In this document: positions 14,920-32,000 of the stretch, in pieces
How the letters are laid out: each line of letters opens with the position of its first letter
Position numbering within the stretch: position 1 is the stretch's first letter
From: Synechocystis sp. PCC 6803 substr. PCC-P
GTDB lineage: Bacteria; Cyanobacteriota; Cyanobacteriia; Cyanobacteriales; Microcystaceae
Length of the DNA: 32,000 nt
Assembly (NCBI RefSeq): GCF_000284455.1
Contig: NC_017039.1
Location: 1,170,001-1,202,000 of the forward strand
Direction of reading: 5' to 3'
Notes under the pieces: model-generated
Database searches by the model: none
Told to the model about the DNA's origin: nothing
The model's input: the letters and a program-made list of their open reading frames with translations, nothing else
Program-made: the position numbers and the translations under genes

Positions 14920-14965
14920 ATAGGAAGAAGACTGATATTTTTGCCCGATTCTTAACTATTTTCAC

Positions 14966-15554: not shown

Positions 15555-16562
15555 TTAACTGGTGGCACTAGGGACAAAATTAGGCACATTGGGATAAACA
15601 TTTTGAATATCTTCCCGAATGGTATTGGGGTCATTTAATGCAAAGTTGGCAATGTCAATTTTTTTCATAAACGCCACCCCTGGTTTTGCCATCACATACT
15701 TAAGAAAATCTTCAAATACATAAACATGCTCCGGCCGTTGCAGGCGATCGTGCATTGTTACCGCCATCATCCGTCGTCGATAGGCAGCTTCCTCATAAAG
15801 GCGATCGAAAGAGTTTTTCAACTCGGTTAAGTACTGGCCAGAGGAAAAGAAGCGGGCCTCATAAGCACGAATATCATTCAGATAAACGGCGTAGGGCACC
15901 ACCATGATAGATTTGCCGTTGTTGAGGTTAACAATGAAAGGTTCATCCCGGCTGACATCATCAATGTGATAAACAAAACCCAATTCATTCAGTACAGTAA
16001 GAATATTGACAGAACCCCGTAAACCCGGGGCATTGTAGCCCACTGCCCGCTGTCCTGTAACTTTTAGGATTATGTCCACATTACGTTGAATAAAGTCCCT
16101 TTCCTGGGGCGCGGTCATATTAAATTCATTGTCCCAATCCCAACCATGGGCCGCCGCTTCATGGCCCCGTTGGACAATTTCCTTGGCCCGGTCTGGATAC
16201 ATTTCCACCGTGCGCCCAGACATGTGGGAAGTGATTTTAATTTTGTACTTATCTAGTAAATCGAGAATACGGGGAACCCCTTCCGTATAGCCATAGCGGT
16301 ACCAAGTAATGGTGGGCATATCGTAGTAATCCGGCGGCGGGGTAAAGTTTCCAAAGGGAGTAGGAGCACCTTTGGCCGGCTGACTGCCTGTTTCAAACAT
16401 TAAAGACAGGGAAATAGGCAAACGGATATTGTCGGGCCAAAATTTACCGCCCCTATTGCTAGATTGTTGCGCCAACAGTGGCTTATTGCCCATCAAAGCG
16501 TAACTGGCGATCGCCCCGGCTCCGGTGGCCAGGCCATATTTAAACAGATCTCTTCTTTGCAT
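15555..16562 (-). CDS. Tat-exported polysaccharide-deacetylase-fold protein, PuuE-like (divergent NodB domain)
   Basis: Twin-arginine signal MQRRDLFKYGLATGAGAIASYAL..AQQ. The body has LSLMFETGS in place of the canonical TFDDG, then GHEAAAHGWDW. This resembles the metal-independent PuuE/allantoinase-like branch (from memory). Confidence 0.6.
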   Translation of the reverse strand: MQRRDLFKYGLATGAGAIASYALMGNKPLLAQQSSNRGGKFWPDNIRLPISLSLMFETGSQPAKGAPTPFGNFTPPPDYYDMPTITWYRYGYTEGVPRILDLLDKYKIKITSHMSGRTVEMYPDRAKEIVQRGHEAAAHGWDWDNEFNMTAPQERDFIQRNVDIILKVTGQRAVGYNAPGLRGSVNILTVLNELGFVYHIDDVSRDEPFIVNLNNGKSIMVVPYAVYLNDIRAYEARFFSSGQYLTELKNSFDRLYEEAAYRRRMMAVTMHDRLQRPEHVYVFEDFLKYVMAKPGVAFMKKIDIANFALNDPNTIREDIQNVYPNVPNFVPSATS

Positions 16563-16565
16563 AAT

Positions 16566-17453
16566 TCAGGACTCCTTGGTGGTTGCAAAAGTGGTTAAAA
16601 TTGCCTGGAAAATTTCCTCCGGTGCTTCCTCAGGAATGTAATGGCCACACTGTTCAATCACGTAACCAGTAATGTCATCACAATAGGGAGATAAACCGTT
16701 ATAAATTAAAGATTTAGTGGCAAATTCTCCCCCCATAGTAAAAATTGGCTGACTAAAATGCGTCTCCGCCGTGGGAGTATTAGCCTTTGTTGTTTCCTCT
16801 AGGGCAGAGTACCAAAGAAAACCAGCTTTCATTGCCCCAGGACGACTATAGTAACGAGCATAGTAATCCATGACTTCGGGGGTAAGATTCTGCTTCCGTT
16901 TAGATTTATTAGTGAAATACCAACTGAGATATTCATTTTCTTTTCCTGTAACCAAACTACTAGCTAAATCCGGCACCATATGAAAATAAAACTGCCAAAC
17001 TTTTGGTGCATTAACCACAGAGAAGAAATCGTTACTAACCAAACCGGGAATAGCTGCATCAATTAATCCTGCCCCCAGCACAGCTTCTGGAAAAAATTTC
17101 AGCACTGTAAAGGCAACCCAAGCCCCCACATCATGACCCACTAAGTAAAAAGAATTAATTTCTTTTTTGGCTAAAAAGGCTTTAATTTCCCTCGCCGCTG
17201 TGCCGCAATCATAGGGGCCATCGGGAATATCGGAATCCCCCTGACCCCTCATATCCAGGGCAATTACCCGGAAATGCTCTCCCAATTGTTCTAGCAATAG
17301 CCGCCAGACGTAGCAGGTTTGGGGCCAGCCCCCCAGTAGAAGTAATGGTTGCCCGCTTCCCCCTTCAATGGCATGAAGATTCACTCCTTCAACGTCGGTA
17401 TAGGTATGCTCAAAGCTTGATGGCAAGGCGATAGGAATAAAGGGGCTATTCAT
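16566..17453 (-). CDS. Alpha/beta-fold hydrolase, epoxide-hydrolase/haloacid-dehalogenase-like (Asp nucleophile)
   Basis: 295 aa with no signal peptide. Has LLLLGGWPQTCYVWR (the HGxP-W box with G replacing H), the nucleophile elbow LVGHDVGAW (G-H-D-x-G), and a C-terminal GHYIPEE (His of the triad). Confidence 0.8.
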   Translation of the reverse strand: MNSPFIPIALPSSFEHTYTDVEGVNLHAIEGGSGQPLLLLGGWPQTCYVWRLLLEQLGEHFRVIALDMRGQGDSDIPDGPYDCGTAAREIKAFLAKKEINSFYLVGHDVGAWVAFTVLKFFPEAVLGAGLIDAAIPGLVSNDFFSVVNAPKVWQFYFHMVPDLASSLVTGKENEYLSWYFTNKSKRKQNLTPEVMDYYARYYSRPGAMKAGFLWYSALEETTKANTPTAETHFSQPIFTMGGEFATKSLIYNGLSPYCDDITGYVIEQCGHYIPEEAPEEIFQAILTTFATTKES

Positions 17454-17473
17454 AGATTATTGACTGAGTAAAT

Positions 17474-18337
17474 TTAGTTAGTTTGATAAGTTTGTCGCAA
17501 AAATTTCAGTCCATCTTGGGCAAGGGCTTCATTACTGGGAGCCACCGTGCGCCACAAGCGGGCTCCATTAGCCAATTCCTTATCCTCAAAATTAAAACTT
17601 TCAATGGTGACCCAACCTTGGTAATCCATGGTTTGTAAGGCTTTAAACCAATGGCCCCAAGCAAAGGAATCACTGCCGGGAGTGCCCCGGTCTTTGGCAC
17701 AGGCATGGATATGAAAACAATGATTGCTCGCTTGTAAAAAAGCTTTGATTACATCCTTTTCTTCAATATTCATGTGGAATAAATCCAGTAATAGCCCCAG
17801 TTGAGGACAATCCACTGCATCGAGCAATTCTAAGCCTTGAGCTACAGTATTTAAAGCATAACCTTGAAAACGATTCAGGGGTTCCACAGCAAACTTCAGA
17901 TCAGTTTTGATCAGAGTTTCCGCTACCAGCTTAAAGGCCTCCTGCATGCGAACATTTTCCCGTTTTTGCAGAGGTTCTCCACTGAGATAACCCACAGGAT
18001 GGGGGAACGGCCCAGAGAGTTGAATGATGCCGCATTGTTGACAGAATTTAATTGCCCTTTCCAGATAAGCAATGGATTCCCGCCAGCAGTCTTCATCCTT
18101 GGTAGTCAAGGATAAACCCCGGGGTAAACTGGTGCAAAAGGTTAGCTCTACACCATACTTTTCGCCATAACTTTTAAGTTGGAGGGGATCAATTTGGTCG
18201 AAATAATGGGTGGCAATTTCTATCCCATCAAATCCCCACCTTTTAGCATCTTGGAAAACATATTCTTCATTACCAAGAAATTCTTTTTTCCAGATAAAAG
18301 TATGAACTCCAAACTTGATTTTGGGGGAAGAAATCAT
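17474..18337 (-). CDS. Xylose-isomerase-like TIM-barrel protein (sugar isomerase/epimerase family)
   Basis: 287 aa with no signal peptide. Has WGFDGIEI, AVEPLNRFQ, LLLDLFHMNIEE and HIHACAKDRGTPG, which are typical of the AP-endonuclease-2/ketose-3-epimerase-like barrel. The start overlaps the upstream stop (ATGA at 18334-18337). Confidence 0.75.
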   Translation of the reverse strand: MISSPKIKFGVHTFIWKKEFLGNEEYVFQDAKRWGFDGIEIATHYFDQIDPLQLKSYGEKYGVELTFCTSLPRGLSLTTKDEDCWRESIAYLERAIKFCQQCGIIQLSGPFPHPVGYLSGEPLQKRENVRMQEAFKLVAETLIKTDLKFAVEPLNRFQGYALNTVAQGLELLDAVDCPQLGLLLDLFHMNIEEKDVIKAFLQASNHCFHIHACAKDRGTPGSDSFAWGHWFKALQTMDYQGWVTIESFNFEDKELANGARLWRTVAPSNEALAQDGLKFLRQTYQTN

Positions 18338-19140
18338 GAGCAGGTTACCGATTTATCACCACGGTTAAAAGCTTCAATTACCTCCACCATACGCTCTAAG
18401 TCTTTATCATTTTTTAGTTTGGCAATTTGGGCAGGTAATTTGTCACTAATGGTGTTGACATATTCCATAAAGTAGGAACTTTGATTAATCCCATATTTGG
18501 GAGCTTCCGAAGCAAAGGCCGCCCTTTGGGCATTGGTCAATTCCGGTAAATTGTTCAAATCAGTAATGCGGGGCCCCACAGCTTGAAAATATTCCCGCAT
18601 CCCACCGTCATGGTAGGGAAAATCCGGTGCAACTTCATTACGCATCCAAACAAAAACAATGGGTAATGTTTTATCCGTAGGATTAACAAAACCATGCATG
18701 TAATGGTTGGGAGAATAAATCAATTGTTTGGGTTCGCTTTGAATGCTATACAAATCTCCCCGACCGGCTCCCCCGACCACAGGTAACTCGTCCATATTGG
18801 GATATTGTTTAGTGCTGTGGAACAGTTCAATACCGCCTTCCGGAGTCCAAAACCATTCATTGATGAAGTAATGAATATGGGGCATGGGGCCGCCTCCGGG
18901 GGGAATTTGGGCGTGGGCGATGGCAAAACCAATGTCCTTGGCACTACAGGAAGCAATATCAAAAATTTCGTTGGCAGGAGTATAAATTAGCAGGGGATCC
19001 GCTAATTTGGGCATGGGAATATCGTCAAAGGTATGAATTTCTGTTTCTGCGGCAACGCTAAAATTTTGCAAAAACAGAATAGTCCCCAACGTCAGAGTTA
19101 AAACTAGACCAATACCCCAAAGTTTGACTTTCAATAGCAT
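18334..19140 (-). CDS. Exported cupin-domain protein, paralogue 2
   Basis: Signal peptide MLLKVKLWGIGLVLTLTLGTILFLQNFSVAA. Perfect cupin motif 1, G(x)5HxH(x)4E(x)6G, as GGGPMPHIHYFINEWFWTPEGG. Motif 2 is HGFVN. Conserved Cys pair (SCSAKD ... VTCS). Confidence 0.85.
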   Translation of the reverse strand: MLLKVKLWGIGLVLTLTLGTILFLQNFSVAAETEIHTFDDIPMPKLADPLLIYTPANEIFDIASCSAKDIGFAIAHAQIPPGGGPMPHIHYFINEWFWTPEGGIELFHSTKQYPNMDELPVVGGAGRGDLYSIQSEPKQLIYSPNHYMHGFVNPTDKTLPIVFVWMRNEVAPDFPYHDGGMREYFQAVGPRITDLNNLPELTNAQRAAFASEAPKYGINQSSYFMEYVNTISDKLPAQIAKLKNDKDLERMVEVIEAFNRGDKSVTCS

Positions 19141-19166
19141 AATTGCTTCTCCAGGCTAATTTAGAT

Positions 19167-19337
19167 TTAAAAACCAAATTTTTGCTTGATAAACGTGTAA
19201 GTGACTTGGCCTAAAAGACAGGCTCCGGCAGCGACTAAGCCTTCAAAAGGGGGAACGGGCAAGGGGAGTTTGAAAAAGCCAAAAATCACTCCTAAGATCC
19301 AGCCGCCAAGAATGGCAAAGCCTAGTTCTTTACTCAT
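19167..19337 (-). CDS. XapX-like small membrane protein (56 aa), not in the supplied ORF track
   Basis: Codon-by-codon manual translation gives MSKELGFAILGGWILGVIFGFFKLPLPVPPFEGLVAAGACLLGQVTYTFIKQKFGF*. It has two hydrophobic helices separated by a P-x-P-x-P-P turn, the pattern I recall for the XapX domain (G.l.G.i......P.PP...l.G..G.l.G). It sits 26-27 nt from both flanking cupin genes. Confidence 0.6.
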   Translation of the reverse strand: MSKELGFAILGGWILGVIFGFFKLPLPVPPFEGLVAAGACLLGQVTYTFIKQKFGF

Positions 19338-19364
19338 AAATTTTCCCAGAAATTGTTGAAAGTA

Positions 19365-20168
19365 TTAAAAGCATTTAACAGTTGCATCGCCTTGATTGTA
19401 GGCATTGATAGTATCGATAATCCGGTTTAAGCTCTGATCATTTTCTAACTTAGTTAATGACGTTGGTAGCTTGCCGCTAACCCCATCTACATACTCAAAA
19501 AAGTAGTAGCTTTGGTTAATACCATAAAGGGGAGCATGGCTGACAAATTCTATTTTGGATTCCTCTGTGATAGCTGGCAAATGCTTTAAATCTTTGATGG
19601 GAATGCCCACGTCCTGGAAATATTCCCGGATGCCACCGTCATGCAATTCGTATTCAGGAGAAATGCCGTCTTCCAACCAAATAAAGGTCAAAGGACGGGT
19701 TTCTGTGGTGGTATTGGCAAAGCCATGGACTCGATATTTGGGCCCGTAAACGATCTGATTGGGTTCAGTATTAACAGTGTACACAGTGGTATTGCCGGCC
19801 TGTTCATCGGTGGCGGGATTCTCCAAATCGGGGTACTCTTTCACACTTTGAAATAGTTGCAGTCCCCCTTTCGGAGTCCAAAACCACTCATTGGTGTAAT
19901 GATGGATGTGAGGTAGTGGTCCCGCCCCTGGGGGAATCTGGGCTTCCGCAATGGTGAAACCAATACCATCGGCATTGCAAGTGGAAAATTCAAAAATTTC
20001 CCCTGCTGGTCCCAGAATTTTTTCTGTTTTTTCTATGTTGGGATGGGGAAAATTATCCAACGTAGAAATTGCCAAGGCTTTAGGAATTGCTATGGTCAAA
20101 GTGCCTAAAACTATCAGTAAAATGAGGCACAACTTGGAAAGTAATGGGGATAAACGTAAAGTTTTCAT
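19365..20168 (-). CDS. Exported cupin-domain protein, paralogue 3
   Basis: Signal peptide MKTLRLSPLLSKLCLILLIVLGTLTIAIPKALA. Motif 1 is GAGPLPHIHHYTNEWFWTPKGG and motif 2 is HGFAN. About 50% identical by eye to paralogue 2 along its full length. Conserved Cys pair (TCNADG ... VKCF). Confidence 0.85.
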   Translation of the reverse strand: MKTLRLSPLLSKLCLILLIVLGTLTIAIPKALAISTLDNFPHPNIEKTEKILGPAGEIFEFSTCNADGIGFTIAEAQIPPGAGPLPHIHHYTNEWFWTPKGGLQLFQSVKEYPDLENPATDEQAGNTTVYTVNTEPNQIVYGPKYRVHGFANTTTETRPLTFIWLEDGISPEYELHDGGIREYFQDVGIPIKDLKHLPAITEESKIEFVSHAPLYGINQSYYFFEYVDGVSGKLPTSLTKLENDQSLNRIIDTINAYNQGDATVKCF

Positions 20169-20194
20169 GACGTTGACTAGGATTTGAGGAAAAC

Positions 20195-20638
20195 TTACAA
20201 TGTCTGCGTTTCGGCTATTTTATAAATCTTAATTTCGGCTGGCTTAGCTAATAAATCAGGAGATTTTTCCACAAATTCATGGAAGTAAGGGGTTTGAAAA
20301 TGATAGTCGAGGGCCGCTCGATTCCGCCAAACTTCAAAAAAAAGAAAAGAATTATCTTCCGTTTCATCCTCATAAAAACTGTAGGAAATACAGCCAGGTT
20401 CCGACCGAGAAGGCTCAATAAATGTCTGGGATAGGGCAATAAATTCTTCTTTTTTATCGGGTTTTACCTTAATGTTGCCCGCTACGACAATGGGATCGTC
20501 CGCCCCCTTAACATCCTCTGCCAAACTGGGAGATGGCAGCAAGAAAATGCTAGTAAACACCAAAAAGGAAAGGATAATGGTCAGCCCCCTTTTTAGCAAT
20601 GCTGCTCTGTTATCAGACAGAAAAAAATCAGCTCTCAT
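20195..20638 (-). CDS. Exported ABM-domain (antibiotic-biosynthesis-monooxygenase/Dabb fold) protein
   Basis: N-terminal hydrophobic signal ..GLTIILSFLVFTSIFLLPSPSLA, then a ~95-aa ABM-like core: IKVKPDKKEEFIALSQTFIEPSRSEPGCISYSFYED..FLFFEVWRNRAALDYHFQTPYFHEF. The exact start codon is uncertain. Confidence 0.7.
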   Translation of the reverse strand: MRADFFLSDNRAALLKRGLTIILSFLVFTSIFLLPSPSLAEDVKGADDPIVVAGNIKVKPDKKEEFIALSQTFIEPSRSEPGCISYSFYEDETEDNSFLFFEVWRNRAALDYHFQTPYFHEFVEKSPDLLAKPAEIKIYKIAETQTL

Positions 20639-21121: not shown

Positions 21122-21688
21122 ATGTCATCAAGAAAAAATTACTACTTAGGTTTGAAAGCGGACTATTCGCAGCCCGGCCTTGTGCCCGATACCCTCAAGG
21201 AGAAATTAATCGCTGAAGGCATTGCCTACGTAGCCCAAAAGGAAGCCACCCTACCGGCGATCGATGATTCTTACACCCTGGAAGTTATTGAACAGGAAAA
21301 CAAAGATTGGTGGCCAACCCACTGTGAAGCTTTGCGACAGGGTCGGGGAGATATTTTAACCGGGGAATACCGGGAAGATTTGGTTTACTTTTGCCAAGAT
21401 GGTCCCTACTCTGGCCTGGAACAACAACAGGAACGGGAAAAACATTGGTGGGCTTTAATTGCTCAGCCTGGGGTTACCATGGTCTGGCCCATTGTCATGT
21501 TTTACGGTGAACATACTTTCTTTGAATGGAAATGTGTGGACGATGAAACCCACGAAACGATCGCCAAGGGCAATGTCACCTGGGTGCGCCGGGGTCACCG
21601 GGGTGGCTGTTATTTAAAAACAGAACAACTCACTTTTTATCGGGACGTGTTTGCTCCTGATAGTTTACTAAAACTAATCACTACCTAG
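21122..21688 (+). CDS. Hypothetical protein, C-terminal half NTF2/SnoaL-like (tentative)
   Basis: 188-aa ORF with compact spacing to the next gene (11 nt). The C-terminal pattern YREDLVYFCQDG..G......W.......G......V...GE.TFFEWKC.D..T.E.IAKGNVTWVRRG is reminiscent of SnoaL-like folds. The call is weak. Confidence 0.4.
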   Translation: MSSRKNYYLGLKADYSQPGLVPDTLKEKLIAEGIAYVAQKEATLPAIDDSYTLEVIEQENKDWWPTHCEALRQGRGDILTGEYREDLVYFCQDGPYSGLEQQQEREKHWWALIAQPGVTMVWPIVMFYGEHTFFEWKCVDDETHETIAKGNVTWVRRGHRGGCYLKTEQLTFYRDVFAPDSLLKLITT

Positions 21689-21699
21689 GAGTTAGCCCC

Positions 21700-22041
21700 A
21701 TGAGTGAGTTTAAAAACGCTGTGCTGGATGATAAAGACCTCCAGGCAGGTCTGGGTGGGATTAATCCTAAATTTGGTGATTTTTGCACCAGGGTAGCGGG
21801 GGAAGCCTGGGGTTTACCATTAATTGATCAAAAAACTAAAGCCCTAATTGTCATTGCGGTGGATGTGGCTAATCAGACCCTCAGTGGCCCTTTTCAAGCC
21901 CATGTGGATATGGCCCTAAAACAGGGTGCTACTAAGGAAGAAATTGAAGAAGTGCTCTCCTTCATGTGTGTTTATGGTGGCTTTAATAAAGCCGCTGGAG
22001 CTTTTGCCGCCCTAAAAGAAATTTTCGAGCAAAATTCTTAG
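21700..22041 (+). CDS. Carboxymuconolactone decarboxylase (CMD/AhpD-like) family protein
   Basis: 113 aa with GGAG 8 nt upstream. The pattern LIDQKTKALIVIAVDVA......QAHVDMALKQGATKEEIEEVLSFMCVYGGFNKA is typical of the CMD family. Confidence 0.75.
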   Translation: MSEFKNAVLDDKDLQAGLGGINPKFGDFCTRVAGEAWGLPLIDQKTKALIVIAVDVANQTLSGPFQAHVDMALKQGATKEEIEEVLSFMCVYGGFNKAAGAFAALKEIFEQNS

Positions 22042-22739: not shown

Positions 22740-24563
22740 ATGAGTCCCAAAATTAACTTTCCTTTTTCCGATCTGATTGCAGGTTATGTGACAAGTTACG
22801 ACCAAGAAGCGGATATTTTTGGTCTGAAAACCTCCGACGGCCAAGAGTTTCAGGTCAAACTTAGTCCCATGGCCTACGCCAAAGTGATCCAAAACTTTGA
22901 TGAAGGTTATCCCGATGCCACCGGCACTATGCGGACTTGGTTAACCCCAGGGCGATTTCTCTACGTTTACGGCGTTTTTTACCCTGATACGGCTATTTTT
23001 GACGGGAAACAGGTGGTCTTTGCAGGCAAAAAGCCAGCGGAATACGTGTTTGAGAAACAGGATTGGTGGATTAAACAGGTAAACTCCCTCGGTAAGTTTT
23101 TTATCAAAGCCCAATTTGGCGACGGGGAGATTGATTACCGCCATTACCGCACCGATTTGTCCATGAGTGGGGAGCGGTCAACGGTGAATTTTCGCCAAGA
23201 AACGGATACCATTTCCCGCCTGGTGTACGGCTTTGCTCCCGCCTTTATGATGACCGGGGATGACCAATTTTTGGAGGCGGCGGAAAAAGGTACGGAGTAT
23301 TTACGGGAGCATATGCGCTTTGTCGATAAGGACGAAGACATTATTTACTGGTACCACGCCATTGATGTGCAGGGGGAAAAAGAACAAAAAATCTTTGCGT
23401 CCGAATTTGGCGATGATTACGATGCTATTCCTGCCTACGAACAAATCTACGCTTTAGCCGGCCCCATCCAGACCTACCGTTGCACTGGCGATCGTCGTAT
23501 TCTCCATGACGCAGAACAGACCATTAAACTGTTCGACAAATTTTTCCTAGACAAGAGCGAATATGGGGGGTACTTTTCCCATCTCGACCCTTTGATGTTG
23601 GATCCCCGCAGTGAATCCCTCGGTCCCAACAAAGCCCGGAAGAACTGGAACTCCGTGGGGGATCACGCTCCGGCTTATCTAATTAACCTATGGTTGGCCA
23701 CCGGGGAGCAAAAATATGCCGATATGTTGGAATATACCTTCGACACCATTGAGAAATATTTCCCGGACTACGACCATAGCCCCTTTGTGCAAGAACGTTT
23801 TTACGAAGACTGGAGCCACGACACCACTTGGGGCTGGCAACAAAATCGGGCTGTGGTGGGGCACAACCTCAAAATTGCCTGGAATTTGATGCGGATGAAT
23901 AGCCTCAAGTCCAAAGAAAAATATGTGGAGTTAGCCAAGAAAATTGCTGACCTGATGCCGGCGGTAGGTAGTGACCAACAGCGGGGCGGCTGGTACGACG
24001 TGGTAGAAAGGTTGTTGGATAACCATAGCCGTTGCCATCAATTTGTTTGGCATGACCGCAAAGCCTGGTGGCAACAGGAACAGGCGATTTTGGCCTATCT
24101 AATTTTGGCTGGTATTTTGGACGATGAAGAATACCACCGCCATGGCCAGGAGGCGTCCGCTTTCTATAACGCTTGGTTCCTAGATTTAGAAGATGGGGGC
24201 ATTTACTTTAACGTCCTTGCCAACGGCATTCCCTACCTAGCGGGGGGTAATGAACGGGCTAAGGGTAGTCACTCCATGAGTGGTTACCATTCCTTTGAAC
24301 TTTGTTATCTAGCGGCGGTGTACACCAATTTTCTGATCACCAAGCACCCCATGGATTTCTATTTCAAACCCTTGCCTAACGGTTTCCCCGACGGTATTCT
24401 GCGGGTATCCCCGGATATTCTTCCCCCTGGCAGTGTGGCGATCGCCAGTGTGGAAATTGACGGCAAACCCTATGAAAATTTCGATGCCCAGGGCTTAACT
24501 GTGACCTTACCCGACAGCCAAGAACGGGTCAAAATCAAAGTTCGTTTAGTCCCCACTGCCTAA
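22740..24563 (+). CDS. N-acylglucosamine-2-epimerase (AGE) superfamily (alpha/alpha)6-barrel enzyme with an ~130-aa N-terminal extension
   Basis: 607 aa. The region from ~aa 140 onward shows AGE-like repeats: ISRLVYGFA, YEQIYALAG, VGDHAPAYLINLWLATGE, VVGHNLKIAWNLMRM, RGGWYDVVE and KAWWQQEQAILAYLI. The N-terminal ~130 aa are not explained by that fold. Confidence 0.65.
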   Translation: MSPKINFPFSDLIAGYVTSYDQEADIFGLKTSDGQEFQVKLSPMAYAKVIQNFDEGYPDATGTMRTWLTPGRFLYVYGVFYPDTAIFDGKQVVFAGKKPAEYVFEKQDWWIKQVNSLGKFFIKAQFGDGEIDYRHYRTDLSMSGERSTVNFRQETDTISRLVYGFAPAFMMTGDDQFLEAAEKGTEYLREHMRFVDKDEDIIYWYHAIDVQGEKEQKIFASEFGDDYDAIPAYEQIYALAGPIQTYRCTGDRRILHDAEQTIKLFDKFFLDKSEYGGYFSHLDPLMLDPRSESLGPNKARKNWNSVGDHAPAYLINLWLATGEQKYADMLEYTFDTIEKYFPDYDHSPFVQERFYEDWSHDTTWGWQQNRAVVGHNLKIAWNLMRMNSLKSKEKYVELAKKIADLMPAVGSDQQRGGWYDVVERLLDNHSRCHQFVWHDRKAWWQQEQAILAYLILAGILDDEEYHRHGQEASAFYNAWFLDLEDGGIYFNVLANGIPYLAGGNERAKGSHSMSGYHSFELCYLAAVYTNFLITKHPMDFYFKPLPNGFPDGILRVSPDILPPGSVAIASVEIDGKPYENFDAQGLTVTLPDSQERVKIKVRLVPTA

Positions 24564-24568
24564 GCCCC

Positions 24569-24898
24569 ATGGATATTCAAATTAATCAACAGGAAGACAT
24601 TACCGTTGTCACCCTTAGCGGGGAAGTGGACGCCAACACGGCCCCGAAAATCCATGAAGTGATTCTGCCCCTAGCGGAACCGGGGTCAAAAATTCTTCTG
24701 GACATGACCGCTGTGCCCTATATGTCCAGCGCGGGGTTACGGCTTTTGCTCTATCTCTACCGCCAAACCACCGCCAACTCAGCCCAATTAGTATTAGTAG
24801 GGCTTTCGGAGGAGTTGATCGACACCATGGCCGTGACCGGATTTCTTGACTTTTTCACCACCCGTCCCACCCTAGCCGAAGGCAAAGAGGCATTTTAG
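24569..24898 (+). CDS. STAS-domain anti-sigma-factor antagonist (SpoIIAA/RsbV-like), copy 1
   Basis: 109 aa. Has VVTLSGEVDANTAP, LLDMTAVPYMSSAGLRLLL (conserved phosphorylatable Ser in the DxxxxxSSxGL motif) and VLVGLSEELIDTMAVTG. It starts 5 nt after the AGE-family stop and ends 9 nt before glgX. Confidence 0.9.
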   Translation: MDIQINQQEDITVVTLSGEVDANTAPKIHEVILPLAEPGSKILLDMTAVPYMSSAGLRLLLYLYRQTTANSAQLVLVGLSEELIDTMAVTGFLDFFTTRPTLAEGKEAF

Positions 24899-24907
24899 CA
24901 GGACACC

Positions 24908-27031
24908 ATGGAACGCATAGATATTCATCCCACCCACACCGCTAACGGTTACAAACTCCGCTGTGGCCAGCCCTTTCCCTTTGGGGCCACCATTGTGCCG
25001 GGGGGAGTTAATTTTTCCATTTACTCTAGCCATAGCACCGCTTGCACCCTAGTACTGTTCGAGAAGCGGGCTCCCCAGCCCTTTGTGGAGATTCCCTTTC
25101 CAGAATCTTTTCGCATTGGTAATGTCTATTGCATGGTGGTGTTTGACCTGGATTTTGAGAATCTGGAATACGGCTATCGCATGGAAGGCCCCAATAACTT
25201 CCAGCAGGGCCATTGGTTTGACCCCAGTAAAGTCCTTCTTGATCCCTACGCCAAAGTGGTCAGTGGCCGGGATGTTTGGGGCACCCAACCCAATTGGGAC
25301 GATATTTATCAACACCGGGGCCGCCTCAGCTTTGACGATTTTGATTGGGAAAACGATTCCCCCCTGGATGTTCCCCTCGAAGACATGGTCATTTATGAAA
25401 TGCATGTGCGGGGTTTCACCAAAGATCCTTCCTCCGGAGTAAAGGAAAATCACCGGGGCACCTTCGCCGGCATTCTCAGCAAAATTCCCTATCTACAGGA
25501 ATTGGGTGTTAATACCATCGAATTAATGCCGATATTCGAGTTTGATGAGTTTGAACATAGTCGTTACCACCCAGAAACGGGGGAATTTTTAGTTAACTAC
25601 TGGGGTTATAGCACCGTTAACTTTTTTGCACCTAAAGCGGGTTACGCTGCCACCGGTAAATTCGGCATGCAGATTGACGAGTTGAAAAACTTAGTCAAGG
25701 AACTGCATAAAGTAGGTATTTCCGTCATTTTGGATGTGGTTTTTAACCATACGGCGGAGGGCAATGAACGGGGCCCCACCATTTCCTTTCGAGGATTGGA
25801 TAACAAAACCTATTACATGCTCACCCCGGAGGGTTACTATTTCAACTTTAGTGGCACTGGCAATACCTTAAACTGCAATAATCCCATTGTGCGGGGCATG
25901 GTGCTGGACTGTCTGCGATACTGGACAGCGGAATTTCATATTGATGGTTTTCGCTTTGATTTAGCCTCTATTTTGGGAAGGGATCCCTGGGGCTACCCCT
26001 TGGCCAATCCCCCTCTTTTGGAAACCCTGGCCTTTGATCCCATTTTGGCCCGTTCCAAACTTATTGCTGAAGCCTGGGATGCCGGTGGGCTATACCAAGT
26101 AGGATCTTTTCCCAGTTATGGCCGCTGGGCCGAATGGAATGGGAAATACCGAGATACGGTGCGAAAATTTATTAAAGGAGATGCGGGGGTAATTGGGGAA
26201 ATGGCCCAAAGGCTACAGGGTTCCCCCGACCTTTATCAAGGAGCCGGACGACCTCCCTCCACTTCGATCAATTTTGTGACGGCCCACGACGGCTTTACCC
26301 TGGCGGATTTGGTGGCCTATAACGGCAAACATAATTACGCTAACGGGGAAAATGGCAATGATGGAGCCAACGACAATTACAGTTGGAACTGCGGGGTAGA
26401 AGGTCCCACCGATAACCCTGATATCCTCAGACTCCGGGCCCGGCAAATGCGGAATGCGATCGCCATTTTGTTGGTGAGTCAGGGGGTGCCCATGCTGTTG
26501 ATGGGAGACGAAATGGGCAAAACCCAAGACGGCAACAATAATACCTATTGCCACGATTCCCCTTTCAATTGGCTCAATTGGCATTTACTTGAACAAAACC
26601 AGGCTTGGTTTCGGTTTGTCAAACACTGCATTGCTTTCCGTCTAGCCCACCCTGTATTACGCAACAGTGAACATTTCCAAAACTGCGATTACCTTGGTGT
26701 GGGATTTCCCGATATTAGTTGGCACGGAGTCAAGCCCTGGCACGCTGACTGGTCCGCCGATAGCCGAGTTTTAGCTTTTATGCTTTGTGGTCGCCATGCC
26801 AAAGGTGGCCGAGTTAAGGATAATCAAATTTATGTGGCCATGAATATGCATTACGAAAGTCTTTGGTTTGAACTGCCAGCTCCCCCGGTGGGCACCACTT
26901 GGCACGTTTTCGCCAACACAGGGGCCCAGCCTCCAGAAGATATCCATCCCCCTGGGCAGGAGCCCCCCCTCTCTTCCCAATCATCCCTACTCATTGGCGA
27001 TCGGAGTGTTGTTATTTTACTGGCTAAATAA
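24908..27031 (+). CDS. glgX: Glycogen debranching enzyme, isoamylase type (GH13)
   Basis: 707 aa with all four GH13 conserved regions: ILDVVFNHTAEG (I), IDGFRFDLASIL (II, nucleophile Asp), LIAEAWDAGG (III, acid/base Glu) and INFVTAHDGFTL (IV). The N-terminus is a CBM48-like beta-domain (GATIVPGGVNFSIYS). Confidence 0.93.
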   Translation: MERIDIHPTHTANGYKLRCGQPFPFGATIVPGGVNFSIYSSHSTACTLVLFEKRAPQPFVEIPFPESFRIGNVYCMVVFDLDFENLEYGYRMEGPNNFQQGHWFDPSKVLLDPYAKVVSGRDVWGTQPNWDDIYQHRGRLSFDDFDWENDSPLDVPLEDMVIYEMHVRGFTKDPSSGVKENHRGTFAGILSKIPYLQELGVNTIELMPIFEFDEFEHSRYHPETGEFLVNYWGYSTVNFFAPKAGYAATGKFGMQIDELKNLVKELHKVGISVILDVVFNHTAEGNERGPTISFRGLDNKTYYMLTPEGYYFNFSGTGNTLNCNNPIVRGMVLDCLRYWTAEFHIDGFRFDLASILGRDPWGYPLANPPLLETLAFDPILARSKLIAEAWDAGGLYQVGSFPSYGRWAEWNGKYRDTVRKFIKGDAGVIGEMAQRLQGSPDLYQGAGRPPSTSINFVTAHDGFTLADLVAYNGKHNYANGENGNDGANDNYSWNCGVEGPTDNPDILRLRARQMRNAIAILLVSQGVPMLLMGDEMGKTQDGNNNTYCHDSPFNWLNWHLLEQNQAWFRFVKHCIAFRLAHPVLRNSEHFQNCDYLGVGFPDISWHGVKPWHADWSADSRVLAFMLCGRHAKGGRVKDNQIYVAMNMHYESLWFELPAPPVGTTWHVFANTGAQPPEDIHPPGQEPPLSSQSSLLIGDRSVVILLAK

Positions 27032-27090
27032 ATTGTCTTAAATTTCCCTTTCCCTTCAATTCACCATTATTTAGATTTTTGTAAAAAACC

Positions 27091-27417
27091 ATGGCTTTCA
27101 ACATCGAATCGGAAATTATTAATAACGCTGCTAAATTAACCCTAATTGGTGAACTAGACGGCGGTACTGCTCCTTTGTTTAAGGAAAAAATCGAAGAAGT
27201 TGCCCAAGCAGAAATTTCAAAACTAGTGTTAATGATGGATCAATTGGAATATATGTCCAGTGCCGGTTTACGTATCTTAGTTTTTGCCAAACAAAAAATG
27301 GGCAGTGGCGTGGAAATATTTTTAGTGGGTACCCAGGAAATGGTCAATGATACTATTGAGCAAACTGGATTACACCACAGTTTTCATTTAGTGGAAAGCT
27401 ATGATTTTCATTCCTAG
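27091..27417 (+). CDS. STAS-domain anti-sigma-factor antagonist (SpoIIAA/RsbV-like), copy 2
   Basis: 108 aa. Has LTLIGELDGGTAP, LMMDQLEYMSSAGLRILV (same YMSSAGLR phospho-site block as copy 1) and FLVGTQEMVNDTIEQTG. Confidence 0.9.
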   Translation: MAFNIESEIINNAAKLTLIGELDGGTAPLFKEKIEEVAQAEISKLVLMMDQLEYMSSAGLRILVFAKQKMGSGVEIFLVGTQEMVNDTIEQTGLHHSFHLVESYDFHS

Positions 27418-27516
27418 ACAACAAAGTTTTGCCAGTGCATAGTTGAAAATCAACCGCATAAATGGAGGAGATAGAATATTAGTAAGGAGCTAAATTACTT
27501 TTGGTAAATTAAACCA

Positions 27517-29421
27517 ATGAAAATGAAACTGATTCAACCTTTCATACAATCAATTCGGTTTCGCATTGTTGGACTTCTCCTGCTTTGTCTGATTCCTCCT
27601 ACCTTAGGAGGGATTTTTCTTATCGACTCCTATACCGGAAGACAATTAAAAAAAATTGCAGAGCAAGATCTTCAAAGCCGGGCAAGATTGATTATCCAAT
27701 TGATTTCCCGTTCAGATCGAGAGCGTCAACAAAGTACAGCTTTTGTTGCTTCCCAACCGGCAATAGTCGAATTCAACGTTGAAGCATCTCAGTATTTTTT
27801 AAACGAGTTCATTAAATTTCACCAATGGAATGGGTTCTTCGTTGTTGCCAACCAAGAGGGGGAACTAGTTGCGGGCAGTGATGGTGCCAACCAAGAAAAA
27901 GGATTACCTCTTAAGCACTGGTTTGAAGAAGTAAAAGATAAAAATCGACATTTAAACCGGTTATTTCCTGGAAAGACCTATGCAGAGAGCAAAGATTGTT
28001 TAATTGTGCCTATCCACAGCAAAAATGATCAAACTCAAATTGGCATTGTTGTGGAATGTATTCCCTTACCAGTTATTGCTGATTTTGTTCAAAAAATTTT
28101 AAAAGATGCTGAGCTTGAGCGTATTTTATTAGTCAATTATGAGGGGTATATTTATGCCGACACCGATTTCAAAAATTACGGCGTACTAGAAAACAAAAAA
28201 AAATCTCCCCTTGTCAATCGGCTGCTCAATGACCAAAGTGGGTTTGTTTATAGTCAAGGTAAGTTTTCCTATCTTTCTCCCGTCCATCTGCGGGGAGCCA
28301 AAACCTGGGGATTAATTGTAGAAAATTCAGAATCTGACATTCAAGCAGCTATTTTGAATGTTAATAGAATTGGTTATCTGCTAGTTTTAGTAATTGGGGG
28401 AATTGTGGCCTATGCTTCCTGGATGGTAATCCACCACAGCACGGTTCCTATTTTGGATCTAACTAAGGCTTCCCAAGCGATCGCCGCGGGAGATTTAGAT
28501 TATGAAATCAATATTAACCAGGGCAATCGTCAGGATGAAATTGGTATTTTGGGTAATAGTTTTATCTACATGAAAAACCAAATTAAAACCCTGATAGCTC
28601 AGGAAGTTAAGGATGGGGTTAACCGTTTGGAATTAGAAAAAGGTCGACAAATTCAGCAAAACTTTTTACCCATTAGCTTGCCTGATTTACAACAGTGGCA
28701 GATAAATGCTGTTTTTGAACCGGCTCGCTCTGTTTCTGGAGACTTTTATGACGCCTTTTTGTTAGGTGATGATTATTTGGCGATCGTGATTGGTGACGTA
28801 TGCGATAAAGGGGTAGGTGCCGCTATGTTTATGGGGTTATTCCGCAGTTTATTGAGGGTATTTTCTGGGGAAACAATGCCTGGGGACACCTGTATCCGCG
28901 ACGTTAACTATAAATGCAGCGCCAATGATGGCAATGGCAAAAAAAAGGTTATCGTGCAATTTTTAAATGCAGTGCGACTCACTAATGATTACATTGCCAC
29001 AGAACACGGAGACATGGCCATGTTTGCCACTCTATTTTTTGGTGTAATTGATATTAGTAATGGTAATCTGAGCTATATCAATGCTGGCCATGAACCAGTT
29101 TTTATCTTAAATTCTGAGGGTATTAAGCATAGATTAAAATCCACTGGTCCTGCGGTAGGAATGATGCCCAATTCTACTTTTACAATTGATAGTTTAAAAA
29201 TTGATCCTGGAGAAATGTTGATTGGTTATACTGATGGCGTTACCGATGCTCGATCGCCAACTAAAGAATTTTTTGGTCGTCAACGATTGATGGAAACATT
29301 AACAGCCAATTTTTCAGCAAAAACAGAAATTCTAGACATAATTAAACAAGAATTAATCGGACATATTGATGGTTCTATTCAGTTCGACGACATTACTATG
29401 ATTGCTGTTTACCGTAATTAG
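27517..29421 (+). CDS. icfG: Membrane-bound sensor PP2C/SpoIIE-type phosphoserine phosphatase (TM - periplasmic sensor - TM - HAMP - PP2C)
   Basis: 634 aa. TM1 is RIVGLLLLCLIPPTLGGIFLI, followed by a ~250-aa extracytoplasmic region. TM2 is IGYLLVLVIGGIVAYASWMVI. HAMP-like segment: PILDLTKASQAIAAGDLDYEI..DEIGILGNSFIYMKNQI. PP2C motifs: SGDFYD, VIGDVCDKGVGAAMFM, INAGHEP, LIGYTDGVTDA and DDITMIAV. The gene symbol comes from my recollection of the Synechocystis icfG cluster. The start could also be the ATG two codons downstream. Confidence 0.85.
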   Translation: MKMKLIQPFIQSIRFRIVGLLLLCLIPPTLGGIFLIDSYTGRQLKKIAEQDLQSRARLIIQLISRSDRERQQSTAFVASQPAIVEFNVEASQYFLNEFIKFHQWNGFFVVANQEGELVAGSDGANQEKGLPLKHWFEEVKDKNRHLNRLFPGKTYAESKDCLIVPIHSKNDQTQIGIVVECIPLPVIADFVQKILKDAELERILLVNYEGYIYADTDFKNYGVLENKKKSPLVNRLLNDQSGFVYSQGKFSYLSPVHLRGAKTWGLIVENSESDIQAAILNVNRIGYLLVLVIGGIVAYASWMVIHHSTVPILDLTKASQAIAAGDLDYEININQGNRQDEIGILGNSFIYMKNQIKTLIAQEVKDGVNRLELEKGRQIQQNFLPISLPDLQQWQINAVFEPARSVSGDFYDAFLLGDDYLAIVIGDVCDKGVGAAMFMGLFRSLLRVFSGETMPGDTCIRDVNYKCSANDGNGKKKVIVQFLNAVRLTNDYIATEHGDMAMFATLFFGVIDISNGNLSYINAGHEPVFILNSEGIKHRLKSTGPAVGMMPNSTFTIDSLKIDPGEMLIGYTDGVTDARSPTKEFFGRQRLMETLTANFSAKTEILDIIKQELIGHIDGSIQFDDITMIAVYRN

Positions 29422-29426
29422 GTGCC

Positions 29427-29858
29427 ATGACTATTTTAAATTTTTCCGCTGATCTAAATGCCTTAAACAGCATTGGCAAACATATTCTAGAGCAAGCTCA
29501 AGCGGTTGGATTACCCAAAAAAAGAGCTTATAAACTAAGATTGGCGGTGGATGAACTAGCAACTAATATTATTAATTATGGCTATGCCAATGCACCGGGT
29601 CATAATCAAATTAGCATCCAAGTAGAAGCGGATGATTGTCAATTAAAGGTTACTATGGTGGACACTGGCTTGCCCTACGATCCCCGCGATCGCCAATTTG
29701 ATCAATCAATTCTTAGTCTGGAAGCAGAAGATCGACCCATCGGTGGACTAGGGATTTTTTTGGCTCTGCAAAGTGTAGATGAATTTACCTATGAAGTGAG
29801 GGGAAATAAAAATATTAGTTGTTTAGTCATGAATTTTGATCCTCCGGGCAATGATTAA
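29427..29858 (+). CDS. RsbW/SpoIIAB-like anti-sigma-factor serine kinase (HATPase_c)
   Basis: 143 aa, starting 5 nt after icfG. N-box VDELATNIINYG, G1 box MVDTGLPYDP and G2 box GGLGIFLA. Confidence 0.85.
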   Translation: MTILNFSADLNALNSIGKHILEQAQAVGLPKKRAYKLRLAVDELATNIINYGYANAPGHNQISIQVEADDCQLKVTMVDTGLPYDPRDRQFDQSILSLEAEDRPIGGLGIFLALQSVDEFTYEVRGNKNISCLVMNFDPPGND

Positions 29859-29962: not shown

Positions 29963-32000
29963 ATGGCGATGTTACCTCTGCCAAACTATTGCCGTATTGC
30001 CCCGCGCCAACCAGAACCATTATCTAAATTTCACGGCCAGCAGTCTATTAGGTTGCAAAGTTTTCCTGAGCTCTGTTTAAGTTTACCTGAAGGCAGTCAT
30101 TATTTGACTGCAAGAATGAATTTATATGAACATTTTGGTCATGATCAGGTGTTTAAAGCTTGCATTGATTACCTAGAAAAAGCCCTAGAAAAATTGGGAA
30201 TACTAGATAGCGATATTCCAGCTAGGTTATTACTAGTTTTTCCGGATCACACCCGCACCGCCATTGCGGTTCGCCTACTGTTAGACGCTATTTTTTACTT
30301 CCAGGAAACCTATAAGCATTTACAATTCAGCATCCTTTTTGGTTTAGGTACCCATCCCCCTATGACACATAAAAGTGTGAGTGAATATTTGGGGGGGGAG
30401 CGTTATCAAAAATTGATTAATCTGGGAATTACTATTCGTCAACAGACCACAATTGCCCCCCTGGAACCCCAAGTAAAAATTAAGGTGCAAGATCGATTAA
30501 AAATTGATGAAGTTTCCAATTACAGTTTTGCAAATTTGAATAGAAACACTGCCCAGTTACAAGAAGTGATCGCCGATTTAAATACGGTTAATTTATCTGA
30601 TTTAGATGAAAATTTATTGATAAAAAACCAATTTGATTTTCCTAATCAAACCAATGAGTTAAATCAAAAACCTCAAATAAAAACAACAAAACTATCCGAT
30701 AATTTCAATCCGTCTCAAGAATATTTTCTTTCTTTGCCTGGGGAATTGTGGCAACATCACCTTACTATTGTAGCAGGAGACACAGAGATACATCCCTACG
30801 AAAGAAGGGGCGGAAGTGGCGGCTTGAATAAAATGTTAGTGGTAGGTTTGGCCAATATTCAGGCCATTCGTCGTAGTCATAGCACCAAAGTTTTACTAAG
30901 TTCGCCAATCAGTCTAGACCTAACACAAAATGCCTTTGTTCATACCTTGGATTATTTAGTAGAGTGCTTTAATCAATCTCTATTAACTCGTACTCCTTGC
31001 CTTGCTCGCACCTATCCCCTCGGCTTTTCCGTTGTTTCCTTGGAAAATCAGCATGTTAATGGTTTTTGGTTCGGCCAAAAGGATCAAGACCGACAAGCTC
31101 TGACGGCGATCGCCAAAGAAAGTCGCACTGTTCATTTACCAGAAAAAATTCATATTCTAGTGGTGGATACAGATATCAAAAAAGGCACTGATATTTTAGC
31201 TGGCGCTAGAGCTTTACAATACGTATGCGAGTGGGATAGTCAAGAAAATTGTCTGCTAGCCGATACTCCTCGTCAAAGAGTTGCCCTCCTATTTAACCCT
31301 TGTCTGGAACAACAAAACCATGGTGGTATTGGTAACCAAGGGACTAAAAAGCAATTAGATGTCTTGCAAAAAATAGTGCACAGCAAAATAAAATTATTTA
31401 GTAGTCAGTTACAAATGTGTGAAAATTTCGATGATGTAATTGGTATTATCAAAACTTACCGTCGACAAGTTTTAACTGCTTGGTATCACCATTTACAACT
31501 CATTAGTGAATTTGATGATTTTCTTGTAATGATCAGAAATGTAGTGTTGATTATCCAAGAGTTGCCTAACTCATCTAAACACCAAATTAATACTAGGGAA
31601 TTTCTGCAAGCAACCTTAGCCAATTATGCCAATGAATACAGTGAAGAGGCAAAATCTATTCAAGAATTACTTGATATTTATCTCACCCACGAAAATTTAG
31701 GAGCAGTGATTACTAAAATAGATCAACTCCAGCAATATTATCAATTATCTGAAGGTTTGGGAGAAGGTGGGCAAAGAGTTTTACGTTGTTTAAAATTACT
31801 GCATAAATTTGAAACTTTTTTGCTAGCCACGGACAATCAAACCGTACTAGATTATTTGGCTAAACTAGATCCCGATTTGAACAACTATCTTCCTCCAGCA
31901 TTAAGGAAAATATTAGATAAACAAAAAATTCATCTAAATTTACTAGGAATTCGGGGCATTAATTTGACTGTTTATTCACCCCAACAATGTTTAGAATTAG
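29963..32000 (+). CDS. Large LarA-like (lactate-racemase N-terminal domain / DUF2088) protein, 5' 679 codons; continues past the window end
   Basis: Not in the ORF track (no stop in the window). I translated the frame from the ATG at 29963 to nt 32000 without meeting a stop. LarA-like motifs: LLLVFPDHTRTA (D-x-TR), ILFGLGTHPPMT (G-T-H) and GDTEIHPYERRGGSGGLNKMLVVGLANIQAIRRSH (H...GG..K....G......I...H). Confidence 0.6.
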   Translation, partial: MAMLPLPNYCRIAPRQPEPLSKFHGQQSIRLQSFPELCLSLPEGSHYLTARMNLYEHFGHDQVFKACIDYLEKALEKLGILDSDIPARLLLVFPDHTRTAIAVRLLLDAIFYFQETYKHLQFSILFGLGTHPPMTHKSVSEYLGGERYQKLINLGITIRQQTTIAPLEPQVKIKVQDRLKIDEVSNYSFANLNRNTAQLQEVIADLNTVNLSDLDENLLIKNQFDFPNQTNELNQKPQIKTTKLSDNFNPSQEYFLSLPGELWQHHLTIVAGDTEIHPYERRGGSGGLNKMLVVGLANIQAIRRSHSTKVLLSSPISLDLTQNAFVHTLDYLVECFNQSLLTRTPCLARTYPLGFSVVSLENQHVNGFWFGQKDQDRQALTAIAKESRTVHLPEKIHILVVDTDIKKGTDILAGARALQYVCEWDSQENCLLADTPRQRVALLFNPCLEQQNHGGIGNQGTKKQLDVLQKIVHSKIKLFSSQLQMCENFDDVIGIIKTYRRQVLTAWYHHLQLISEFDDFLVMIRNVVLIIQELPNSSKHQINTREFLQATLANYANEYSEEAKSIQELLDIYLTHENLGAVITKIDQLQQYYQLSEGLGEGGQRVLRCLKLLHKFETFLLATDNQTVLDYLAKLDPDLNNYLPPALRKILDKQKIHLNLLGIRGINLTVYSPQQCLEL

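Follow-up and report, generated by a model that had tools for sequence, protein, structure and literature searches.

The closest described system to the genes analysed here is the icfG cluster of Synechocystis sp. PCC 6803, a partner-switching locus that has been known, together with its biochemistry, since 1999 and for which a sigma-factor target was published in 2025. We analysed a 32,000-nt stretch of substrain PCC-P (the window; contig NC_017039.1, positions 1,170,001 to 1,202,000) in which two STAS-domain genes, a PP2C phosphatase gene and an RsbW-like kinase gene are interleaved with genes for carbohydrate enzymes. A published forward primer for slr1857 (PMC4911114) matches exactly at window positions 24908–24926, at the start codon of the GlgX gene, and all 17 residues of the kinase Slr1861 named in PMC12329169 (L10 through Q115) are identical in the window kinase, which together identify the locus as slr1855–slr1861, the icfG cluster. 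The Synechocystis-specific W_rich_C domain of a giant protein encoded nearby fits this assignment. An initial annotation, made from the DNA letters alone, had named this cluster and had stated that its kinase, phosphatase and phosphoprotein substrates were shown biochemically; the primer and the kinase residues bear out the name, and later papers citing Shi et al. 1999 describe the same biochemistry. The locus, genes, gene order, phospho-site motifs, kinase, phosphatase and phosphoproteins of the published cluster (Shi, Bischoff & Kennelly 1999; Gonzalez et al. 2001), the 1999 work as later papers describe it, are the same as here, and the sole difference from the published cluster is a substrain allele, Pro167, in slr1855.

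The published function centres on the kinase. High CO2 is lethal to a ΔrpoZ strain, and its suppressors map to ssr1600, an unlinked STAS gene (PMC12329169). In the same study, Ssr1600 and Slr1861 form a complex in reciprocal pull-downs; the unphosphorylated form of Ssr1600 binds the kinase, the phosphomimetic substitutions S59D/S60D abolish binding, and Slr1861 phosphorylates Ssr1600 in a Phos-tag kinase assay. The RNA polymerase (RNAP)–SigC holoenzyme is 3-fold more abundant in ΔrpoZ and is restored in the ssr1600 suppressor lines, and its amount tracks the Ssr1600 level, whereas the SigB and SigE holoenzymes do not, from which Kurkela et al. 2025 concluded that Slr1861 is an anti-SigC factor (PMC12329169). 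The statement in the initial annotation that the downstream target had never been identified is thus out of date. For the two STAS proteins encoded within the cluster, the accounts given in PMC12329169 and PMC11619594 are that Slr1861 phosphorylates both Slr1856 and Slr1859, with Slr1856 the better substrate, that IcfG dephosphorylates Slr1856-P and not Slr1859-P in vitro, and that Δicf​G and Δslr1859 mutants show poor growth on glucose when inorganic carbon is low.

What the present analysis adds is the conserved synteny of this arrangement across several cyanobacterial orders. In the searchable literature we found no account of two STAS genes interleaved in this conserved manner with genes for an unusually conserved AGE-like enzyme and an apparently inactive GlgX paralogue, and the conservation favours a functional link between the switch and the enzymes.

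A partner switch interleaved with enzymes

The six genes of the module lie on one strand:

22740–24563, + strand: slr1855, AGE-superfamily protein (AGE-like), 607 aa, Pfam PF07221 GlcNAc_2-epim
24569–24898, + strand: slr1856, STAS-1, 109 aa, Pfam STAS and TIGR00377
24908–27031, + strand: slr1857, GlgX2, 707 aa, Pfam CBM_48, Alpha-amylase and isoamylase C-terminal domain
27091–27417, + strand: slr1859, STAS-2, 108 aa, Pfam STAS and NCBIfam
27517–29421, + strand: slr1860, the PP2C phosphatase IcfG, 634 aa, Pfam dCache_1 (weak), HAMP and SpoIIE
29427–29858, + strand: slr1861, kinase, 143 aa, Pfam HATPase_c_2

In the open reading frame (ORF) list the successive gaps between these genes are 5, 9, 59, 99 and 5 nt. 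The gene order and gap lengths given in the initial annotation match this list exactly, and Pfam confirms each of the six genes.

Several lines of evidence identify the module as a genuine RsbU/RsbV/RsbW-type partner switch whose sigma factor is encoded elsewhere. First, STAS-1 and STAS-2 score 92.6 and 78.9 bits against Pfam STAS, both pass the TIGR00377 anti-sigma-antagonist superfamily model, and their mutual sequence identity is 40%. As expected of partner-switch antagonists, each consists of a single domain whose loop ahead of helix 2 carries a conserved, phosphorylatable serine. Both also contain the block YMSSAGLR that the initial annotation had singled out. The block is kept in 70 of 79 STAS-1 orthologues, while the 72 aligned STAS-2 orthologues mostly read YMASAGLR, leaving only the second serine conserved there; this second serine is conserved in 72 STAS-2 and 79 STAS-1 orthologues. 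Its conservation in STAS-2 fits a single acceptor in each protein, predicted from the alignments to be Ser54 of Slr1856 (codon 24728–24730) and Ser57 of Slr1859 (codon 27259–27261).

Second, the kinase matches HATPase_c_2 with 73.3 bits and retains the N-box Mg/ATP-binding residues E43 and N50 named in PMC12329169. Its matches to the RsbW equivalogs of NCBIfam are weak and far below cut-off, which makes it a member of the family and not an RsbW equivalog.

Third, the phosphatase scores 145.9 bits for its SpoIIE domain, and a SpoIIE domain is found in 58 of the 60 cluster phosphatases compared. Hydrophobic segments at approximately residues 15–39 and 277–305 flank the Cache region, giving IcfG a layout of transmembrane segment, dCache, transmembrane segment, HAMP and SpoIIE domain, in agreement with its earlier description as a membrane PP2C. 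The input domain is exchangeable among the 60 phosphatases (GAF in 32, HAMP in 5, of which 4 with dCache, and PAS in 2), so that the membrane form of Synechocystis belongs to a minority.

The module has no sigma gene in cis. Six-frame searches of the window with Escherichia coli RpoD, FliA and RpoE as probes (E ≤ 10) detected no sigma-70-family ORF, and Pfam detected no sigma family in the window ORFs of at least 100 aa outside the module, ORFs merely overlapping longer genes being excluded. These searches uphold the earlier claim that the window holds no sigma gene. The accompanying label 'sigma-less' holds in cis only, because the published SigC output places the sigma factor elsewhere in the genome (PMC12329169). 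A cognate sigma gene in the operon, which is a typical but non-defining trait of the Bacillus archetype, is absent from the window and, within ±10 kb, from all 83 loci surveyed below.

Conservation of the gene order

We scanned one genome per GTDB species with an alignment of the AGE-like protein as the query. At least 454 genomes encode a relative; the survey comprises the best 80 of these, with 83 loci whose ORFs were classified using the window proteins as queries. Every surveyed genome with a taxonomic label is cyanobacterial, and the lineages covered are Chroococcales, Pleurocapsales, Nostocales, Oscillatoriales, the Leptolyngbya type and Synechococcus PCC 6312. Close orthologues of STAS-1 (58–75% identity) were found throughout the cyanobacteria.

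The order AGE-like, STAS-1, GlgX, STAS-2 is present in 66 of the 67 loci that have at least 3.6 kb past the AGE-like gene, and the lone exception stops at a contig edge. Agreement of this extent takes the arrangement far beyond chance. The initial annotation had raised the question of how often glgX is embedded between STAS genes in other cyanobacteria and had allowed that an unconserved order would undo its proposal; the embedding recurs in these same 66 loci, and that refutation therefore fails decisively. Where at least 7 kb is available downstream (58 loci), the kinase is present in 57 and the PP2C gene in 53, with more freedom in their placement: the kinase precedes the PP2C gene in 31 loci and follows it in 17, and in 4 loci the PP2C gene lies upstream of the AGE-like gene. 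No sigma-family ORF was detected within ±10 kb in any of the 83 loci (1.44 Mb in total; RpoD, FliA and RpoE probes), under conditions in which the probes detected one another as a positive control (RpoD–FliA, 2e-17; FliA–RpoE, 7e-8).

The conserved block begins upstream of the AGE-like gene, with three further genes, whose locus tags are assigned by position:

21122–21688, + strand: slr1852 (unk188), 188 aa, no Pfam family match, first gene of the conserved block
21700–22041, + strand: slr1853 (CMD), carboxymuconolactone decarboxylase/AhpD-like, 113 aa, PF02627 with 60.8 bits
22111–22707, + strand: slr1854, DJ-1/PfpI, 198 aa, PF01965

A homologue of unk188 is found in 57 loci, CMD lies upstream of the DJ-1/PfpI and AGE-like genes in most loci, and DJ-1/PfpI directly precedes the AGE-like gene in 74. 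The block as a whole reads unk188, CMD, DJ-1, AGE-like, STAS-1, GlgX2, STAS-2 and kinase/PP2C, and is kept by no fewer than 66 species of the survey. Synechococcus PCC 6312, Anabaena cylindrica and Myxosarcina GI1, for example, each have CMD, DJ-1/PfpI, AGE-like, STAS, GlgX, STAS and PP2C/kinase genes in this order on one strand. Median identity to the window proteins is 77% for unk188, 75% for the AGE-like protein, GlgX and DJ-1, and 73% for CMD, compared with 60% for STAS-1, 56% for STAS-2, 48% for the PP2C catalytic domain and 41% for the kinase; the enzymes thus remain approximately 75% identical between orders against approximately 41% for the kinase.

The spacing within the block is less constant. 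The initial annotation had described STAS-1 as almost translationally coupled to the two enzymes on either side; the gaps of 5 and 9 nt are real in this genome but are specific to Synechocystis, the median gaps in other genomes being 136 nt (AGE-like to STAS-1) and 97 nt (STAS-1 to GlgX). With the short gaps confined to Synechocystis, we rejected the idea that translational coupling is a conserved mark of complex formation between the proteins.

Two loci depart from the common pattern. In L016 (Microcystis sp. BLCC-F210 chromosome), a DDE transposase gene (15767–17512) stands directly past STAS-2 and neither kinase nor PP2C lies within 10 kb, so that the enzyme and STAS part can persist without an adjacent kinase and phosphatase. 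In L073, a short locus, STAS-1 is directly followed by STAS-2 (11943–12652) with GlgX missing between them, the only such case, and the PP2C gene lies upstream of the AGE-like gene, beside genes for an Old Yellow Enzyme and an ABM protein.

Because the STAS genes stay interleaved with the enzyme genes across orders even where the kinase and phosphatase genes move or vanish, the switch and the enzyme block almost certainly share a single physiological task. This shared task is probably the balance of carbon fixation against the use of stored or external sugar.

Output of the switch and alternative readings

We consider it likely that the icfG module is a SigC-centred switch with a functional coupling to the enzymes, at least at the level of co-expression. 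SigC is its best-supported output, as suggested by holoenzyme levels together with a structural model. A signal at the phosphatase would raise the amount of unphosphorylated STAS protein, which would capture the kinase; the SigC set free in this way would start a growth-limiting transcription programme, until the kinase re-phosphorylates the STAS protein, is released and binds SigC again. The in-cluster STAS proteins most probably serve as further antagonists with different wiring, in competition for Slr1861 (and PmgA). Their conserved surface regions coincide with the kinase-contacting regions of the Ssr1600 model (PMC12329169), and no extra partner is needed to explain this conservation. For co-expression, slr1852–slr1862 acts as a single operon that is repressed by salt, and expression of the entire icfG cluster, slr1857 included, is lowered in ΔrpoZ (PMC12329169).

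Five points weigh against this SigC-centred reading. The published case for a contact between Slr1861 and SigC is indirect, drawn from holoenzyme levels in vivo and from an AlphaFold-Multimer model, and the model figure of the same paper labels Slr1856 and Slr1859 as 'putative antagonists, target sigma unknown' (PMC12329169). A Δslr1856 mutant grows normally, according to PMC12329169 and PMC11619594. Co-expression by itself offers no obvious reason why the interleaving of STAS and enzyme genes is kept where the PP2C gene has moved (4 loci) or where kinase and PP2C are missing (L016). Finally, the survey was anchored on the AGE-like gene and, of at least 454 genomes with a match, took in the best 80, and lineages lacking that gene lie outside the sample.

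A rival explanation, which we regard as unlikely, is a direct metabolic output in parallel to SigC, in which one or both in-cluster STAS proteins, depending on their phosphorylation, would bind and activate or inhibit GlgX2, the AGE-like enzyme or both; in a variant, the kinase itself would sequester one of these enzymes. Either way, an alpha-glucan-processing step would come under post-translational control. The position of STAS-1 between the AGE-like and GlgX2 genes and of STAS-2 past GlgX2, kept even where kinase and PP2C are rearranged or absent, is what such an output would lead one to expect. So are the properties of GlgX2. This protein scores 704.9 bits against the NCBIfam GlgX equivalog TIGR02100 (cut-off 640.9) and contains the GH13 motifs DVVFNH, GFRFDL, AEAWD and FVTAHD (regions I–IV); regions I–III are identical in 69 of 69 full-length orthologues, and the His-Asp of region IV is likewise kept in 69 of 69. 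Despite these intact catalytic motifs, and approximately 75% identity across orders, a GlgP-coupled assay detected no debranching by GlgX2, and knocking out its gene gave no phenotype, GlgX1 (Slr0237) being the working debranching enzyme (bioRxiv 10.1101/2022.11.21.517384). The absence of a partner, or of a substrate, would account for an enzyme that looks intact yet is inactive alone.

Precedents for such control exist. In Anabaena, HenR and Alr3423 control the STAS-fused glycosyltransferase All4160 (PMC13555669); Streptomyces GlgX is itself reported to be allosterically regulated (PMC9530166); and the HsbA and SiaC systems are reported to act on diguanylate cyclases. The timing of STAS phosphorylation is also suggestive. 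Slr1856 and Slr1859 both become more phosphorylated in the dark and as cells begin to recover from nitrogen chlorosis. Darkness and early resuscitation are conditions under which glycogen is mobilised.

Against a direct metabolic output, no fusion of STAS with GlgX or with AGE was found among the top 120 homologues of STAS-1 or of the AGE-like protein, the 5- and 9-nt spacing that suggested stoichiometric co-synthesis is not conserved, the conserved STAS regions match an Ssr1600-type kinase interface, and a sigma output is already published (PMC12329169). For this last reason the proposal of the initial annotation that the output is metabolic rather than transcriptional finds no support as an either/or. 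It is doubtful, and for now hypothetical, that Slr1856 and/or Slr1859 act as regulatory subunits of GlgX2, of the AGE-like enzyme or of both, under the control of their own phosphorylation, which would make icfG a two-output switch. If they did, icfG would drive SigC-dependent transcription and also directly control a putative alpha-glucan or sugar-conversion pathway (unk188, CMD, DJ-1, AGE-like and GlgX2) that many cyanobacterial lineages retain, and the regulatory-subunit role would account for a GlgX2 that looks intact but is inactive when assayed alone.

Somewhat less probable still is that SigC is not the direct target: Slr1861 would act mainly as a kinase, the output of Slr1856 and Slr1859 would be a non-sigma partner outside the cluster, as has been proposed for Hmp, Hcy and SypA-type systems, and the effect on SigC would be indirect. 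The indirect nature of the published SigC link (holoenzyme levels and a model) leaves room for this, as does a cluster accompanied by a sigma gene in none of the 83 loci. The kinase is moreover the least conserved component (median 41%), which is unexpected for the holder of a conserved group-2 sigma factor, and HcyC of Nostoc punctiforme bound none of SigC, SigF and SigJ in a two-hybrid assay. Hcy, however, is built differently, around a single STAS gene and a hybrid histidine kinase, and the suppressor genetics, the Slr1861/Ssr1600 pull-downs and the change specific to RNAP–SigC all fit an anti-SigC role (PMC12329169).

That the interleaving is a historical accident, with signalling genes merely sitting in a carbohydrate operon, is highly improbable: within the window alone, only proximity and strand tie the two sets of genes together, but the recurrence of the same order in 66 of 67 loci from several orders while the flanking genes differ, and the co-regulation of the block as one unit in Synechocystis, effectively refute it.

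The conservation of the gene order turns the vague statement that icfG links inorganic carbon and glucose metabolism into concretely testable propositions, concerning the STAS proteins against GlgX2 and Slr1855 and the role of the five-enzyme block. At issue is the balance that cyanobacteria strike between photosynthesis and the consumption of their carbon stores, a matter of both physiology and engineering.

Among the enzymes, Slr1855 belongs on sequence grounds to the AGE superfamily, remote from the characterised AGE and cellobiose 2-epimerases. Its match to PF07221 (55.7 bits, cut-off 23.4) covers residues 319–487 only, it reaches 22–25 bits against the NCBIfam equivalogs for AGE and cellobiose 2-epimerase (cut-offs 600–800), and its sequence matches in the PDB have E values of 1e-5 to 1e-3 only. 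The protein evolves unusually slowly, being 72–90% identical across orders among the 83 loci. The nearly invariant alignment accounts for the low confidence of its AlphaFold model (predicted local distance difference test 62.8, predicted template-modelling score 0.68). The best Foldseek matches of this low-confidence model are glucose 2-epimerase, cellobiose 2-epimerases, mannose isomerase and sulfoquinovose isomerase (E 4e-8, template-modelling scores 0.5–0.65), and the model supports the (alpha/alpha)6-barrel fold class only. In an alignment to Pedobacter AGE (8bry), the invariant G374-H375 falls on its GH, within the region of the first catalytic histidine, and the invariant H511 and H517 are candidates for the second.

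The substrain allele lies in this protein. Codon 167 (window 23238–23240) encodes proline, where 19 of 19 orthologues in one alignment (A2) and 3 of 3 in another (A1) have threonine; the residue sits in a conserved helix. Pro167 is a derived allele at a near-invariant site and may affect the function of Slr1855 in some laboratory strains.

The upstream members of the block occur elsewhere as parts of larger proteins. In Nostocales and Pleurocapsales, unk188 corresponds to the N-terminal part of EthD-domain proteins of approximately 515–545 aa. Together, unk188 and CMD (21122–22041) match parts of proteins of approximately 515–545 aa and approximately 1000–1200 aa in two loci (L002, 2334–7223; L003, 344–5393), and these large proteins bring together EthD, CMD, glyoxalase and SnoaL domains. 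Among the further inserts in the block are genes for SDR, DUF4432, Old Yellow Enzyme, ABM and O-methyltransferase proteins. These fused and inserted domains hint at small-molecule or reactive-carbonyl chemistry. A second alpha-amylase-family gene (617–633 aa) lies past the kinase or PP2C gene in L003 (14878–16779), L005, L007, L010 and L027, the protein in L003 with a CBM_20 starch-binding domain, and these genes reinforce the alpha-glucan theme.

Base composition changes within the module. The GC content at third codon positions (GC3) falls sharply at the boundary between GlgX and STAS-2 (27032–27090, approximately 27.0 kb), from 0.56 (AGE-like), 0.60 (STAS-1) and 0.53 (GlgX) upstream to 0.35 (STAS-2), 0.33 (PP2C), 0.29 (kinase) and 0.30 (LarA-like, described below) downstream. 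S. salina shows the same break and PCC 6312 a weaker form of it, and GC3 is higher in the enzymes than in the regulators in most genomes. Recent horizontal transfer of the STAS-2, PP2C and kinase half, which the drop from approximately 0.55 to 0.30 might suggest, was rejected because the break recurs in relatives; it looks like a difference in codon usage or expression instead. Scans for promoter and terminator consensus sequences from 20.5 to 30.2 kb gave counts equal to those in shuffled sequence and are thus uninformative on internal promoters, and Rfam (gathering thresholds) and tRNA scans of the whole window gave zero RNA genes.

One co-directional gene follows the kinase:

29963–32000, + strand: LarA-like ORF (slr1862 by position), weak Lar_N match, running past the window end

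This ORF fills the 2.1 kb past the kinase that had appeared ORF-free, an artefact of the ORF listing. With a homologue in 3 of the 83 loci only, the LarA-like gene falls outside the conserved core in spite of its orientation.

The remainder of the window is occupied by other genes. Positions 826–9876 and 11319–15493 hold genes unrelated to the icfG module, among them genes for a 3016-aa protein with BNR, Calx-beta, FG-GAP and Synechocystis-specific W_rich_C domains, two adjacent WD40 proteins (12920–14919) and HbpS-like proteins on opposite strands (11319–11864, + strand; 14966–15493, − strand). A divergent − strand set at 15555–20638 encodes Polysacc_deac_1, alpha/beta hydrolase, AP_endonuc_2, two unknown proteins of approximately 267 aa and ABM. 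This set is fully syntenic in PCC 6312 only, and all of it but Polysacc_deac_1 is also found in S. salina; the ABM gene alone is widespread beside the block (31 of 83 loci).

Comparison with known systems

The RsbU–RsbV–RsbW–SigB and SpoIIE–SpoIIAA–SpoIIAB–SigF systems of Bacillus subtilis resemble icfG in combining a PP2C phosphatase, a single-domain STAS protein and a GHKL serine kinase that is also an anti-sigma factor, and they share the phosphorylatable serine of the STAS protein in a D/S-S-x-G-L loop. In Bacillus the sigma gene is part of the same operon, in contrast to the icfG cluster, where this is so in 0 of 83 loci. The icfG system further differs in having two STAS proteins in the cluster and one elsewhere, a membrane phosphatase with Cache and HAMP domains, and genes interleaved with those of enzymes.

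The Chlamydia RsbU–RsbV1/RsbV2–RsbW system is similar to icfG in other respects, with two non-redundant STAS antagonists per kinase, one of them the better substrate, and an operon without a sigma gene. It comes from an unrelated lineage, and its cluster is without carbohydrate enzymes. The Hcy system of Nostoc punctiforme was considered as an icfG orthologue and rejected; besides its single STAS gene and hybrid histidine kinase, its description leaves glgX unmentioned.

Within Synechocystis, the Ssr1600–Slr1861–SigC cascade (PMC12329169) uses the same kinase and adds, from other parts of the genome, SigC and Ssr1600 as a third antagonist; in that work SigC binding is inferred, and no role is given to the in-cluster STAS proteins or to the neighbouring enzymes. 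GlgX2 itself has its nearest counterparts in the GlgX/TreX-type GH13 enzymes (TIGR02100), including GlgX1, with which it shares regions I–IV and the catalytic Asp/Glu/Asp. It is unlike GlgX1 in that debranching activity and a knock-out phenotype are undetected, and in being flanked by STAS genes in 66 of 67 loci.

The comparison that bears most directly on the interleaved enzymes is the HenR–Alr3423–All4160 module of Anabaena (Harada et al. 2026, PMC13555669), where a SpoIIE-type phosphatase and an RsbW-type kinase act through a STAS domain on a carbohydrate-active enzyme. In All4160 the STAS domain is fused to the glycosyltransferase, whereas the icfG STAS proteins are free-standing and their contact with an enzyme is hypothetical; the Anabaena module establishes that a non-sigma, enzyme-level output exists in the cyanobacterial phylum.

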